DNA of 64,000 nt from Candidatus Multivorans sp. (GTDB lineage Bacteria; Acidobacteriota; Thermoanaerobaculia; Multivoradales; Multivoraceae): the NCBI GenBank assembly GCA_965247095.1, contig OZ251997.1, positions 2,368,001 to 2,432,000 on the forward strand, written 5' to 3'. The translations under genes were made by a program, and so were the position numbers. This document shows positions 8,245 through 19,905 of this stretch, piece by piece (positions within the stretch are counted from its first letter, which is position 1; each line of letters opens with the position of its first letter). The notes beneath the pieces were generated by a model. That model had not been told where the DNA came from, ran no database searches, and saw only the letters and a program-made list of their open reading frames with translations.

Positions 8245-8327
8245 CAGACAGCCAGGTCTCCTGACTCACCTTCCTCCTACTCGCCGGCCCTTCCCATCCC
8301 TGTTCGGGACAGTGGTTAACGCCGGTT
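8245..8327 (-). promoter_or_regulatory. Cobalamin riboswitch, 3' half only
   Basis: Minus strand reads AACCGGCGTTAA-CCACTG-TCCCGAACAGGGAT-GGGAAG-GGCCGGCGAGTAGGAGGAAGGT-GAGTCAGGAGACCTGGC, which includes the B12 box. The 5' motifs are absent here. Confidence 0.9.
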
Positions 8328-9047
8328 ATCCAGCTTCACGCCAACCGGCTTCCGCAACAGCAACCGGGTCCAGGTGTCGAGATCGGCCGTCATCGGTCGG
8401 GCCAGGGCGTAGCTAAAACGGGCGAGATCGAGCACGTCAGCGCGGACTGTCGGATGCTCGATCTCAGCGGCGGCCGCGAGCAGCGGATCGAAGTCGGTGC
8501 CGGCCAAGGTGCGGGGGCCGACCAGGGCCAGCTGTTCGCTGCGGCGGTACACCTTCCGCGGCCGCAAGTGTCGAGACGCGGCGGGTATGCCGTCCACGCT
8601 GACGGCCTCAACCTCGATCGGCGTCAGCAGGGCGGTCGCCGCGGCCGGTTGCCGGGTGAAGCTCTGATCGACGACCGAGATACGCGCTCGCTTTGGCGGC
8701 TGCGGGGTCCGGTGGGCCTTCTTTGCCGGCTCTGGCTTCGCCTTGTCGCGCCTGTCTCGTGATCGGGGCTGTCGAGGGGTCTGGGGTCGTTTTCGGGCCG
8801 ATCGGCGCTTCCTGGGCCTCTCAGGGCCTCGTTGTGCAGCCGGCTCGCGGGCGTCCAGGGCCAGGGCGACCTCGAACTCGAGACCCGCCGCGGCCAGTAC
8901 TTCGCCGGCGACGGCCGCGGCGCGAGCGTTCGGCGCGACGATGCGCCCGTCTCGATGCCAGCCCCGCACTAGCCGTGCTTCCTCGGGAGTAACCTGCCCG
9001 GCCTCGACTGCGCTCTCGAGTCCGGCGGAGAGTGCGGCCTTCATCAC
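8316..9047 (-). CDS. N-terminal part of a split putative replication protein
   Basis: Translationally coupled to the par genes. Stops a few codons past the left junction. In frame with 19827-19168 when the element is circularised. Rep function is inferred from position. Confidence 0.65.
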   Translation of the reverse strand: MMKAALSAGLESAVEAGQVTPEEARLVRGWHRDGRIVAPNARAAAVAGEVLAAAGLEFEVALALDAREPAAQRGPERPRKRRSARKRPQTPRQPRSRDRRDKAKPEPAKKAHRTPQPPKRARISVVDQSFTRQPAAATALLTPIEVEAVSVDGIPAASRHLRPRKVYRRSEQLALVGPRTLAGTDFDPLLAAAAEIEHPTVRADVLDLARFSYALARPMTADLDTWTRLLLRKPVGVKLDNRR

Positions 9048-9274
9048 TGGGGCAGATACCGCTCGATCATCACGGTTGCCGCCTCTCGGCCCAGTTCATC
9101 CAGGTTGAGACCGGCCAGCGCCGCGGCCGCCTTCAGGCGGCGCGCCGTCATCTCGTCGTGGTAACTGACCCACGCGACCCTGCCTTCACGGGAGGCCGGT
9201 GGCTTCGGCTTCTTCGTCCTCGCGCTCCCCGCCTGCATGGCGGCCGCGTATGGTGACGATCCGGTCTTCTTCAT
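9044..9274 (-). CDS. Small ParG-like / RHH partition partner
   Basis: 76 aa, MKKTGSSPYAAAMQAG...RLKAAAALAGLNLDELGREA. ATGA overlap with parA; GGAGG RBS. Confidence 0.6.
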   Translation of the reverse strand: MKKTGSSPYAAAMQAGSARTKKPKPPASREGRVAWVSYHDEMTARRLKAAAALAGLNLDELGREAATVMIERYLPQ

Positions 9275-9890
9275 TTCGCCCTCCTGATGATCCAGCTGTA
9301 GAAGTCGGCGATCTCGCCCGCCGCCTTGGAAGTCGGTTCGAGTTCTTGCGCGCTCCTGCCGAGCACGAACGCTTTGGCGTGAGCGACCCGTTGACCGATG
9401 ACCACCGGGCAGACTTCGGCCCCGAAGTCGCGCACCGCATCCCGGGCATCGGTGATCCACGAGCCACGGGCGGGCGCCTGGTTCACCACCACGATCGCTC
9501 GAGCGCCGGCAGCGGCGACCACCTCGAGAGTCGCCGGCAACGCCGCCAGGTCCGGCGCCGCAGGTCGGCAGGGGACGATCACCACGTCAGCAAGGCCCGC
9601 CGCCGCGACTGCGCCGGCCTTTTCTCTGGGCGCCGTGTCGATCACGACCAGCGTCGCGCCCGCGTCGTGAGCATCCTCGACTACCCGCCGCAGCCTGGGC
9701 GGATGGGCAGAGACGACCTCTGGGGGATCACCGCCGCGAAGGCGGCCCCAAACCGACGCGGTTCCCTGCGGATCGGTATCGACGACTGTGGACTGACCAC
9801 CGGCCAGGTCGTTGGCGACGGCCAGGGCAACCGCGAGGGTCGACTTCCCAACGCCCCCTTCTGAGCTAAAAGCGCAAGCACGGTGAACAT
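9271..9890 (-). pseudogene. parA: Type Ib ParA ATPase with a 1-bp frameshift in Walker A
   Basis: Adding one G to the G5 run (9854-9858) gives QKGGVGKSTLA..VDTDPQG..VIDTAP. May be a real lesion or a homopolymer sequencing error. Confidence 0.85.
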
Positions 9891-10050
9891 TGATGGCGAT
9901 GGGAGCACATGCAGAACTAACGATGAGATTCGATGGCCGCGCTAGTCTTCAGCTCATGACACACACAGGACTCGGACCACATGTCGGCTCTGCTGAACTG
10001 CTTGGACGATTGGAGTCGCGCACGGCTCGCGGGCTAAAAAAGGGGCGGTG

Positions 10051-10197
10051 GTGAGTTTTCTCGACAGGTTCGACCTCGACCTCATCCTCAACATTGCCGC
10101 CGGGATAATCACCGCCGGCGTCGTAGCCGGCGTCGTACTGACCGTGCTCTCCGTCGTGATGGCGACGCTCCGCGTCGTACTGACCGCGCTCTTCTGA
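10051..10197 (+). CDS. Small hydrophobic peptide (48 aa)
   Basis: VSFLDRFDLDLILNIAAGIITAGVVAGVVLTVLSVVMATLRVVLTALF, preceded by AAAGGGG. Below the ORF-track size cutoff. Confidence 0.45.
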   Translation: MSFLDRFDLDLILNIAAGIITAGVVAGVVLTVLSVVMATLRVVLTALF

Positions 10198-10206
10198 CCG
10201 TCCGGT

Positions 10207-18143: not shown

Positions 18144-18340
18144 CGTCTTGGTCCTCCCCTGCTAACTCCGGTCGGCTTCCGGCTCGGGCCTGTCGTTCCA
18201 GGTTCGGTCTTGGAGAGCTTCGCAAGGCGGGGGCGGTCGCTGTTGGCGACGATCTCGGCGGCCTCACGCTCGATCTCGGCGATTTCCTTCGGGGTGTAAA
18301 AGCTCCTCAGGATGTCGTCCAACGGAACGGGCTCGGTCAT
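18140..18340 (-). CDS. Mini-ORF 2, HigA-N-terminus-like, no HTH
   Basis: MTEPVPLDDILRSFYTPKEIAEIEREAAEIVA; same RBS; ATGA coupling. Confidence 0.7.
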   Translation of the reverse strand: MTEPVPLDDILRSFYTPKEIAEIEREAAEIVANSDRPRLAKLSKTEPGTTGPSRKPTGVSRGGPRR

Positions 18341-18528
18341 CGTGTCGGTCCTCCCCTGCGACTCCCGGTCGGTTTCCGGCTCGGGCCTGACGGTGCAGGT
18401 TCGGTCTTCGCGAGTTCGCGTTGGCGCCGGATCTCAGCGAGCGTCTTGGCGTTGTCGGCCTTGATGCGGGCGCGAGTCTCGGGCGGCAGGGTCTTGATGA
18501 GGTCCTCCCACGGATAGTGTCCAGTCAT
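18337..18528 (-). CDS. Mini-ORF 1, HigA-N-terminus-like, no HTH
   Basis: MTGHYPWEDLIKTLPPETRARIKADNAKTLAEI; RBS context AGGGGAGGACTCACACGATG. Confidence 0.7.
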   Translation of the reverse strand: MTGHYPWEDLIKTLPPETRARIKADNAKTLAEIRRQRELAKTEPAPSGPSRKPTGSRRGGPTR

Positions 18529-19029
18529 CGTGTGAGTCCTCCCCTGCCTGCGACGAAGCCTATCGCTACGGCAGCCGAGCGGGAGCAGCAAGCAGGTCGA
18601 GGTACGCGACTGACCTGGACATAGGGGAACGCCCACCTGGAGACAACGCAGTCCACAGGGTTTCGGGCCTCGATTCCGTCTAGGTCAGTAGGGAGGGCGG
18701 CCGCGGCGGTCCCCTTGCTCCTGAGACGGGCGCACACAGCGCCGCCCGGTCGCTCTCCCGGTGGAGCGTCTGAACGACGGAATTGAGGGCCCTCCGGCCA
18801 CTTTTCGCGCCTGGCTAGCAACTTCCCCCAGGGGGGAAATGGGTCGATTGCCCCCCTTCACGAGGCCCCGGCGGCCCGCGCAGGAGTCTTACCGCCGCGT
18901 GTCCCTCTGTTCCGGTCGCCGTAGCCAGCCTCCGGATCCGCGGATTCTCCGCGGCGCGCAGCGCCGCCGCGTCTGTGGTCGTCCAAGCGTGGCGTACCGG
19001 GTCTGGCTCTTGAAGGATCAGAACGCGAA

Positions 19030-19160
19030 CGGCCCCCCCTTGGGGGGGCTTAGGGGGGTTCTGGATCTAATGGATCTAATGCTGACCGCGAAGATGTAGG
19101 CGGGACAAGGGTTTCCGGGGTTTAGCGTGACGCGAACCCGCCGTAGCGTGACGCGCACGG
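19030..19160. other. Candidate plasmid replication origin
   Basis: Non-coding, just downstream of the rep-like gene. TAGCGTGACGCG twice, 21 bp apart (19123, 19144); TGGATCTAA twice; C7-TT-G7 palindrome. Confidence 0.5.
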
Positions 19161-19167
19161 GAGGCGG

Positions 19168-19827
19168 TCAGTCGTCCAGCAGCGTCCGGATCAAGTGCCA
19201 CTTGTAGGCCCCGGATTCGTTCTGCTCGACGCGCCGGGTCGCCTCGACGTAGCGCGCACTGGCACGCACGACGAAGACGGCTTCACCCGTCTTCCCCGGC
19301 CGCAGGATGCGCTCGACGAGCTCCACGGTGTCGCCGGCTTCGGCTTCGCCGCGGCCGGCGGCGAGATAGCCGTGCTTGACCAGGTGCTCGAACAGTCGGC
19401 CCAGGCGCTTCCGGTCCCGGTCGGTGAGCGGACCCTCCGGCACGTCGTCGCCGGCCATGCGGAGCACGTCGGCGCCGGCGATGCGCACCTCTTGACCTGG
19501 GCCGGTCTTCCCCGTCGCGGGCTGTAGGAGTTCGGGGGTCCAGCCGCCTTTTCCGGGCGACCACGCCAGACGTGCCTCGATGCCGTCGAGGGCGCGGCGG
19601 GCGCGGGTGTCCCGGGCACTGCGGAGGTCCTGGCGGAACAGGCCGCCGGTGAGTCTCCAGGCTCGCGGCCCTTCTCGCCGCGCCCAGGTCGGCGGGCCAA
19701 GGGTCCAAAGCTCCGGTGTGGGCACGTCAACGAACGCGAGCGGTCGCCAGTCTGTGGGCGTGAGTCGAACACCGAGGCCATAGAGGACCGACAAAGGATC
19801 GACCGCGCGAGCTTGATCGAAACGGTT
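19168..19827 (-). CDS. C-terminal part of the split putative replication protein
   Basis: The apparent start at 19869 lies inside the riboswitch half. The frame (AAC CGT TTC, NRF) continues exactly from ...KLD at 8328. Confidence 0.65.
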   Translation of the reverse strand, partial: NRFDQARAVDPLSVLYGLGVRLTPTDWRPLAFVDVPTPELWTLGPPTWARREGPRAWRLTGGLFRQDLRSARDTRARRALDGIEARLAWSPGKGGWTPELLQPATGKTGPGQEVRIAGADVLRMAGDDVPEGPLTDRDRKRLGRLFEHLVKHGYLAAGRGEAEAGDTVELVERILRPGKTGEAVFVVRASARYVEATRRVEQNESGAYKWHLIRTLLDD

Positions 19828-19905
19828 TTCGTCTTGGATCACAGTCGCGGGGCGGTGGGAGATTCGCACTCCCTTCCCTTGAACTGCCTGCGTTCTGATG
19901 TGTGC
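19823..19905 (-). promoter_or_regulatory. Cobalamin riboswitch, 5' half only
   Basis: Minus strand reads GAACGCAGGCAGTTC-AAGGGAA-GGGAGTGCGAATCTCCC-ACCG-CCCCGCGACTGTGA-TCCAAGACGAAAACCG. Confidence 0.9.

Follow-up and report, generated by a model that had tools for sequence, protein, structure and literature searches.

ResD, which acts at rfsF of plasmid F, and Rsd, which acts at crs in Salmonella, are tyrosine recombinases of plasmid multimer resolution, and tyrosine recombinases also run invertible-segment switches such as fimS (with FimB/FimE) and the invertible promoters of Bacteroides. The subject of this article is an 11.5-kb island that carries the gene of a Cre-like tyrosine recombinase and is found in a stretch of 64,000 nucleotides from Candidatus Multivorans sp. 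(Acidobacteriota; assembly GCA_965247095.1, contig OZ251997.1, positions 2,368,001 to 2,432,000), hereafter the window, in which positions are counted from the first letter. The island is a small mobilisable plasmid, opened within its own predicted replication-initiator gene (rep) and joined to the chromosome inside a cobalamin riboswitch, and the event is best explained, with a probability of roughly 0.6, by the plasmid's own recombinase having acted at two cryptic sites.

The Cre recombinase integrates P1 at the loxB locus of E. coli (Sternberg et al. 1981, as cited in PMC2018622) and uses cryptic lox sites that retain as few as 14 of the 34 loxP bases, such cryptic sites being present also in yeast and mammals (PMC2018622). 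Cre-type sites are described as normally composed of 13–15-bp arms and an 8-bp spacer and as lying less than 1 kb from the recombinase gene, with matching spacers thought to be needed (PMC10250229). The locus described here is like P1 Cre/loxP in that a simple Cre-type recombinase of a plasmid-like replicon is accompanied by one palindromic site near its gene. Unlike loxP, which has 13-bp arms and an 8-bp spacer (PMC10250229), the island site has arms of about 5–6 bp around a 6-bp spacer and is 18 bp long in total.

The Island and Its Junctions with the Chromosome

The inserted segment, to which no strand is assigned, occupies positions 8328..19827 and comprises 11,500 bp if, of the two terminal copies of the 5-bp crossover core CGGTT (left copy 8323..8327, right copy 19823..19827), only the right one is included; the genome of 4,617,209 bp contains the segment once. 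Its limits were established from empty sites in relatives and from alignments of the junctions. Each flank was searched against 40 relatives, 24 of them of the same genus, and in 23 of these 24 the end of the left-flank match is separated from the start of the right-flank match by 54–57 bp, which is the spacing predicted without 8328–19827, i.e., an empty site; in the remaining genome, G011, the projected distance is about 97 bp. When four relatives were aligned directly, the left flank was seen to run to 8330 and the right flank to start from 19823, the two overlapping on one copy of the core. One relative with flanks 95% identical, G016, has the uninterrupted site GGTTAACGC-CGGTT-TTCGTC, and compared with it the chromosomal site neither gained nor lost a base, so the exchange was conservative. 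The empty site is well conserved in all 11 relatives that were inspected base by base. No repeat longer than CGGTT, direct or inverted, flanks the island and no tRNA gene is present in the window, which argues against a classical integrase–att island or a transposon.

Both junctions fall within hybrid 18-mers. The left one, attL (8314..8331), is composed of a left arm and spacer from the chromosome, GGTTAA-CGCCGG, and a right arm from the plasmid, TTATCC, and the right one, attR (19814..19831), of a left arm and spacer from the plasmid, TGATCG-AAACGG, and a right arm from the chromosome, TTTTCG. In the motif scoring described below attL reaches 13.2 bits, a value equalled or exceeded at 22 chromosomal positions, and attR −1.8 bits. 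These two 18-mers had been singled out in the initial annotation of this DNA, together with a third inside the island (12180–12197), as sites of one common geometry; all three are exact to the base, and the accompanying remark that the attL and attR spacers have only their last three bases, CGG, in common was confirmed.

Both attL and attR are bridged by contigs assembled from four public runs, all of one sample, which is probably the source sample; these contigs confirm only the assembly. A joint of the empty site or of a circle is absent from these contigs, which drop rare variants and hence are uninformative on excision. In two runs, contigs of low depth (2.9 and 4.4 vs. ~30–50 for the main form) connect position 19653 with 8879 across 17 intervening letters of other sequence. 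This order would be predicted for a circular plasmid, except that ~725 nt of rep are absent, and the contigs could represent a free or deleted relative.

The Plasmid Partner: a Split Replication-Initiator Gene

The two ends of the island carry the two parts of a single gene, both on the minus strand. The 5′ part of rep (8316..9047) consists of 240 plasmid codons that are followed by 2 chromosomal codons and a chromosomal stop, and the 3′ part (19168..19827) of 219 codons and a stop. When the island is closed into a circle the two parts share a frame and together read as 459 codons without a stop. The open reading frame (ORF) of the 3′ part extends in frame beyond the island to a GTG at 19869, and in both ORFs (8316–9047 and 19168–19869) the GC content by codon position is coding-like. 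Two 592-residue metagenomic proteins align to the left ORF and then to the right ORF, gap-free at the junction, which is crossed by the homologue sequence …LD(N/P)R|(F/R)D…. The HMMER all-against-all comparison with the right ORF yielded 174 relatives, most of them of 450–620 amino acids and matched in the C-terminal third, and a profile built from 60 of these matches the genome in two pieces, at profile positions 114–273 and 277–496. In 41 genomes of the same genus the profile found no further copy, only one weak match of 28 residues in G013, and a search with a three-sequence alignment gave one 4.8-kb contig of a metagenome-assembled genome. Since the frame requires one copy of the core in the circle, CGGTT must have been present in each partner beforehand and did not arise by duplication.

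What kind of protein does this gene encode? Neither the rep pieces nor 16 full-length homologues were matched by Pfam, NCBIfam or PHROGs. An AlphaFold model of the family (predicted local distance difference test, pLDDT, 75.7; predicted template modelling score, pTM, 0.67) has a tandem winged-helix fold that aligns only with iteron-type initiators. In Foldseek, rows 1–44 are RepE54, Rep or π and the top 45 entries are all such initiators, and VIA-align gave Z 9.2 for RctB domains 2–3 (root-mean-square deviation 4.3 over 227 residues), Z up to 7.2 for RepE54 and Z 7.0 for π, with the initiator-like region corresponding to residues ~257–564 of the 592-residue homologue. Since these Z values are middling, they support the fold rather than prove the function, and the split gene is by its predicted fold an iteron-type plasmid replication initiator. 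It is the split frame, the homologue alignments and this initiator fold, taken together, that identify the island as a small mobilisable plasmid opened in rep.

The Chromosomal Partner: a Cobalamin Riboswitch

A cobalamin riboswitch that is conserved across the genus (RF00174; 91 bits vs. a gathering threshold of 31.5, E 5.7e-23; L025 6297–6465) surrounds the empty site of G016, the junction falling midway along the match. In the window there are two partial matches to this riboswitch, one per junction, that at 8256–8353 scoring 25.4 bits; with coordinates projected from the alignment, the 3′ part of the chromosomal riboswitch is placed at 8234..8327 and the 5′ part at 19828..19902, both on the minus strand. 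The chromosomal substrate of the crossover, attB, lies inside this riboswitch and the plasmid substrate, attP, inside rep, and both locations are additional to what the initial annotation had described. The promoter-proximal half of the riboswitch now reads into the 3′ part of rep, open in frame to the GTG at 19869.

Downstream of the riboswitch, G016 has an intact gene of a TonB-dependent receptor of 666 amino acids, with Plug and β-barrel domains. In the window only remnants of this BtuB-like receptor gene are left (7450..8139, minus strand), the pieces of which give no Pfam match and which are without two clean stretches of 568 bp (at 7733/7734) and 610 bp (at ~7989); both stretches are present in G016, G024, G012, and G014, and neither length is a multiple of 3. 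The insertion would have uncoupled riboswitch and promoter from the receptor gene, which would later have lost the two stretches. Near the same intergenic region G022 bears a different insertion (G022:C1:2878155-2881745), in which about 3.4 kb stands between the riboswitch/promoter region and recC.

The Recombinase and Its Cognate Site

The recombinase gene (10207..11163, minus strand) encodes 318 amino acids from an ATG at 11163. The product is matched by Pfam Phage_integrase (E 8.5e-15), its residues 75–336 align with residues 72–343 of Cre, and R179, K207, H288, R291, W314, and Y323 (numbering of the 341-residue ORF) align with the Cre catalytic residues, while the XerC/XerD models score far under their cut-offs. 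That the enzyme is Cre-like, as had been stated in the initial annotation, is borne out by the retention of all six catalytic residues and by the sequence matches to solved structures, 17 out of 17 of which are Cre or Tre (best E 1.6e-12). Within the genus 28 of 41 other genomes carry homologues (E ≤1e-20), as does 1 of 15 others in the family, and none was found in the other 11 families of the order. Remnants of homologous recombinase genes, 149 and 108 bp long and 76–77% identical, were also noticed at G000:C1:1342814-1342962 and 4118821-4118928; at the place of the first of these, G194 has a full recombinase gene within an extra stretch of 3.2 kb.

The core site CGATAA-CTGAAC-TTATCC (12180..12197) is located upstream of the gene pair formed by an ankyrin-repeat gene (ank) and the recombinase gene. 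It is the only exact occurrence of GATAA-N6-TTATC in the whole genome and the best-scoring position of the genome under a matrix made from the homologues' sites. In G012 the sequence CGATAA-TAGGAC-TTATCC lies ~20 bp upstream of a recombinase gene 84% identical to that of the window; this sequence agrees with the window in its arms and in the 22 nt that follow, and differs in three of the six spacer bases. When homologue loci were searched from ~350 bp before the projected gene start to 90 bp beyond it, matches with at most 2 mismatches were present near the gene start in 13 of 29 loci (23 matches vs. ~0.5 expected at the genome-wide rate), and in 14 of the 23 loci aligned to the N-terminus the motif stands directly upstream of the recombinase. 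An arm–N6–arm motif was found, therefore, beside the homologous genes, where the initial annotation had proposed to look for it.

Ten of the homologue loci, all more distant than that of G012 (L045, L046, L048-L051, L055-L058), contain inverted pairs of GAYAA-N6-TTRTC, 160–230 bp apart, just upstream of a chromosomal Cre-like gene and opposite a conserved gene without a family match. Nine of these were recognized by the motif and one, L050, by a motif-free inverted-repeat search, and the spacers are identical within the pair at 8 of 9 distinct loci. Such a layout suggests invertible switches; no flipped orientation was seen, all alignable upstream regions of the homologue loci being in one orientation. 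By these comparisons the core site of the family, the conserved arms of which are 5–6 bp, is GAYAA-N6-TTRTC, defined independently of the junctions, and the internal palindrome of the island is identified as the genuine cognate site of the Cre-like recombinase. The single site, alone on a plasmid-like element, would fit a role in multimer resolution. Neither a sigma-70-like promoter nor a terminator was found at the internal site.

Resemblance of the Recombining Sites to the Cognate Site

The initial annotation had treated attL and attR as the sites that were recombined. They are the products of the event and its substrates are attB and attP, which had to be reconstructed; the crossover took place at the boundary of spacer and arm. 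The attB site (the G016 sequence) has the arms GTTAA and TTTTC with 1 mismatch each, and attP (left arm and spacer of attR with the right arm of attL) has the arms GATCG, which is poor, and TTATC, which is perfect, with 2 mismatches. Their scores are 6.19 and 5.25 bits, and 796 and 1,296 chromosomal positions, respectively, score as high. Each site is a moderate match, the register is common to both, and the core straddles the boundary of spacer and right arm. As the DNA equivalent to attP is not conserved in two relatives of rep, attP is cryptic rather than designed.

Is this resemblance more than would be expected by chance? Genome-wide, GATAA-N6-TTATC occurs at 6 sites with at most 1 mismatch (attL among them), at 177 with at most 2 and at 3,110 with at most 3 (0.67 per kb). 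By this count of degenerate matches, which the initial annotation had called for, attR, with 3 mismatches, is at chance level when taken alone. To judge the two substrates together, random reciprocal events were simulated at 5-mers common to the island-less chromosome and the circular island, in any of 22 registers, and in 22 of 399,534 events the two partners scored at least as well as the real ones (p 5.5e-5). With a matrix built from the inverted-pair loci only, this was so in 39 of 399,516 (p 9.8e-5). Jointly, attB and attP match the cognate site above chance. The idea that both junctions resemble the internal site thus holds for the substrates from which they arose and fails for attR taken by itself.

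Proposed Mechanism of Integration

The most probable course of events would be that the 11.5-kb mobilisable plasmid recombined with the chromosome by means of its own Cre-like recombinase, which would have bypassed its cognate site and acted on cryptic sites in the plasmid rep gene and in the chromosomal cobalamin riboswitch. Of the core CGGTT, three bases are spacer positions 4–6 and two open the right arm; attL retains the spacer of attB and attR that of attP, which fits an exchange at the right spacer boundary, and on this side the plasmid arm is perfect and the chromosomal arm has 4 of 5 bases. Strands would accordingly have been exchanged at the right-hand boundary between spacer and arm. 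Because the left halves of the spacers differ (CGC vs. AAA), two routes are proposed. In the first, one strand exchange would give a Holliday junction, to be resolved by replication or by a host enzyme; in the second, a complete exchange would leave a heteroduplex spacer that replication would segregate. In either case a daughter that inherited one strand would carry exactly the pair of attL and attR observed, and the data are equally compatible with both routes, the product being the same. Catalysis by the recombinase, the order of strand exchange and the irreversibility of the event are what we infer from these junctions.

Excision is unlikely, because attR hardly qualifies as a site and its spacer is not that of attL, and with attR at about −2 bits a one-way integration is plausible. 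Moreover, the crossover cut both rep and the riboswitch, and the split rep gene would be unable to drive replication, so that the insertion is probably permanent. One may ask why cryptic sites and not the cognate site of the plasmid were used. A possible reason is survivorship, in that an integrant formed via poor sites could not excise and one with a broken rep would fire no extra origin.

The wider proposal, that a Cre-like enzyme joins cryptic sites sharing three spacer bases by one replication-completed strand exchange, which results in irreversible capture and kills rep, and that the same family, through its unusually short 18-bp GAYAA-N6-TTRTC site, runs invertible switches across the genus, is put forward tentatively, its chance of being right in all parts falling somewhat short of even.

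Alternative Explanations

Several observations weigh against the recombinase as the agent, and a number of them favor its most serious competitor, namely a recombinase-independent illegitimate recombination by a single reciprocal crossover in CGGTT. Such a crossover could be due to subunit exchange of topoisomerase or gyrase or to RecA-independent short-homology recombination, and the resemblance of the sites would then be coincidental. The partners have merely 5 bp in common at the crossover, and any short-homology mechanism leaves the same junctions. A perfect cognate site on the same plasmid was left unused, although it should be a far better substrate. Besides attR being at chance level, one arm of attP is poor (the left arm, −4.8 bits), and the scoring matrix is AT-rich while attB and attP are both AT-rich patches, which inflates their scores; with the AT count of the arms held fixed, attB would be matched by chance at 3.6e-3 per register and attP at 9.5e-4, or ~1e-3 jointly by a conservative estimate. 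The motif that seeded the search of homologues was taken from the initial annotation, where it had been picked for its resemblance to the junctions; the inverted-pair structure does not depend on that motif. A related element in G016 (see below) has integrated elsewhere in the chromosome, its junction homology amounts to ~2 bp, and its crossover splits no site; motif-like matches start at its junction and are not split by it, and this integration was judged uninformative. Identity of spacers, a normal requirement of Cre, is absent (CGCCGG vs. AAACGG, 3 of 6), and for this reason the event is classed as a variant rather than a standard Cre reaction. Finally, binding or cutting of these sites by the recombinase is a prediction from sequence.

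Three findings speak against a crossover of this illegitimate kind and make it, on balance, an unlikely account, albeit one to be taken seriously. Simulated microhomology events match the motif as well as the real one only at the low frequency given above (22 in 399,534), and the register of the crossover coincides with the boundary of spacer and arm. The exchange was, in addition, conservative and reciprocal with respect to the chromosome and in frame with respect to the plasmid, a pattern that site-specific recombinases typically produce and end-joining seldom does. The proposal of the initial annotation that the recombinase acted on two cryptic sites is retained on these grounds as the best explanation, the resemblance being improbable as a product of chance, with the short-homology crossover kept beside it as the main competitor.

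The second alternative is that host XerC/XerD, and not the plasmid enzyme, acted on both sites. The Xer core sites dif, cer and psi have inner arms of the form ATAA-N6-TTAT, and the inner arm and 6-bp spacer of the present motif resemble this geometry. The motif, however, travels with the Cre-like genes, as its place directly upstream of them in 14 of the 23 loci that reach the N-terminus demonstrates, and attB is a riboswitch beside recC and not the dif site of the chromosome (the host dif was not located here), which makes a Xer-mediated event very improbable. Least credible is an integration of the transferred strand by the relaxase at an oriT-like chromosomal sequence, or a transposition with a 5-bp target duplication: an MbeA-type relaxase is indeed encoded and CGGTT flanks the island in the manner of a target duplication, but the junction is 3.5 kb from the relaxase gene and within rep rather than in an intergenic oriT, the island ends have no terminal inverted repeats, and transposition with such a duplication was rejected since the rep frame and the gap-free homologue alignment need one CGGTT in the circle.

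Other Features of the Island

The remaining genes of the island are likewise on the minus strand unless stated, and several of them have no family match. A partition ATPase gene, parA, is found at 9271..9889, where the ParA model matches residues 81–202 only; it has a 1-nt frameshift, one G being missing from a G run in the Walker A motif, so that the first 12 codons are in another frame, and this could be post-integration decay or a homopolymer sequencing error. The ankyrin-repeat lipoprotein gene (11190..12131), located between the core site and the recombinase gene, contains 6.6 tandem units of 102 nt that are 86% alike (11283–11955), and its product begins with a lipoprotein-type signal (…LLLLGC). 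A mobilisation relaxase of the MbeA/MobA type is recognized by family models at 14450..16315, and its translation probably begins close to residue 155 of this ORF. Three diverged repeats of ~190 bp at 18033–18547 and a 15-nt motif that occurs twice at 19123–19158, 21 bp apart and just downstream of the rep stop, are candidate origin or iteron sequences.

In PLSDB the island DNA is without a match and the rep pieces are without a protein match, and the relatives of the recombinase found there are distant only (<60% identity). The island also departs from the definition of integrative mobilisable elements, since attP lies inside rep rather than in an intergenic position beside the integrase, and the core is of 5 bp rather than repeats of at least 10 bp.

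The related element of G016 (G016:C1 ~3.63–3.65 Mb; L077 17610–20000 and L066 1–18063) is ~18.7 kb long and contains a relaxase, a recombinase that is 81% identical to that of the window and has one TAA stop, ParA, an ORF of 2,188 amino acids and two insertion sequence copies. It also encodes a protein of 573 amino acids, of which only the N-terminal part is common with the rep of the window, and it is inserted at a place that matches G000 576523/576524.

Significance and Comparison with Known Systems

If integration by the recombinase is true, the locus is a natural, base-resolved case of off-target activity of a Cre-type recombinase, by which a plasmid became a fixed part of a chromosome at the cost of a replication gene and of a riboswitch-controlled uptake gene. 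To our knowledge, examples of this sort have as a rule come only from engineered Cre systems. The locus would also provide a compact 18-bp target and a clade of Cre-like enzymes in Acidobacteriota that are directly testable, and the analysis adds a family of replication initiators, predicted as such by fold, that has had no sequence-family annotation.

The predicted fold of the split rep family is like that of RepE of mini-F, π of R6K and RctB of Vibrio chromosome 2; unlike these, the family has no sequence-family match and possesses an extra N-terminal domain and a basic linker. Like integrative mobilisable elements, the insertion sits in the chromosome and encodes a tyrosine recombinase and a relaxase, but its attP lay within a coding gene that integration destroyed, its core is of 5 bp, its target is not a tRNA or a gene end, and its recombinase stands mid-island with a site of its own. 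With the fimS-type switches, ten homologue loci have in common the inverted sites that flank ~160–230 bp upstream of the recombinase; the island differs in having one site only, and the flipped orientation was not seen at any locus. ResD/rfsF and Rsd/crs are similar in that a Cre-related recombinase with a single site near its gene is carried by a plasmid with par and rep, a likeness drawn by description, and different in that most homologues in the genus are chromosomal with two inverted sites. The nearest comparison is with P1 Cre/loxB. There one partner is cognate, whereas here neither is and the spacers match at 3 of 6 positions; here, furthermore, the event split the replicon's own rep and a riboswitch, and it is known from its sequence alone. 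In common with P1 Cre/loxB, a degenerate chromosomal look-alike would have been recombined, and the hybrid product sites would be poorer substrates than those from which they were formed.

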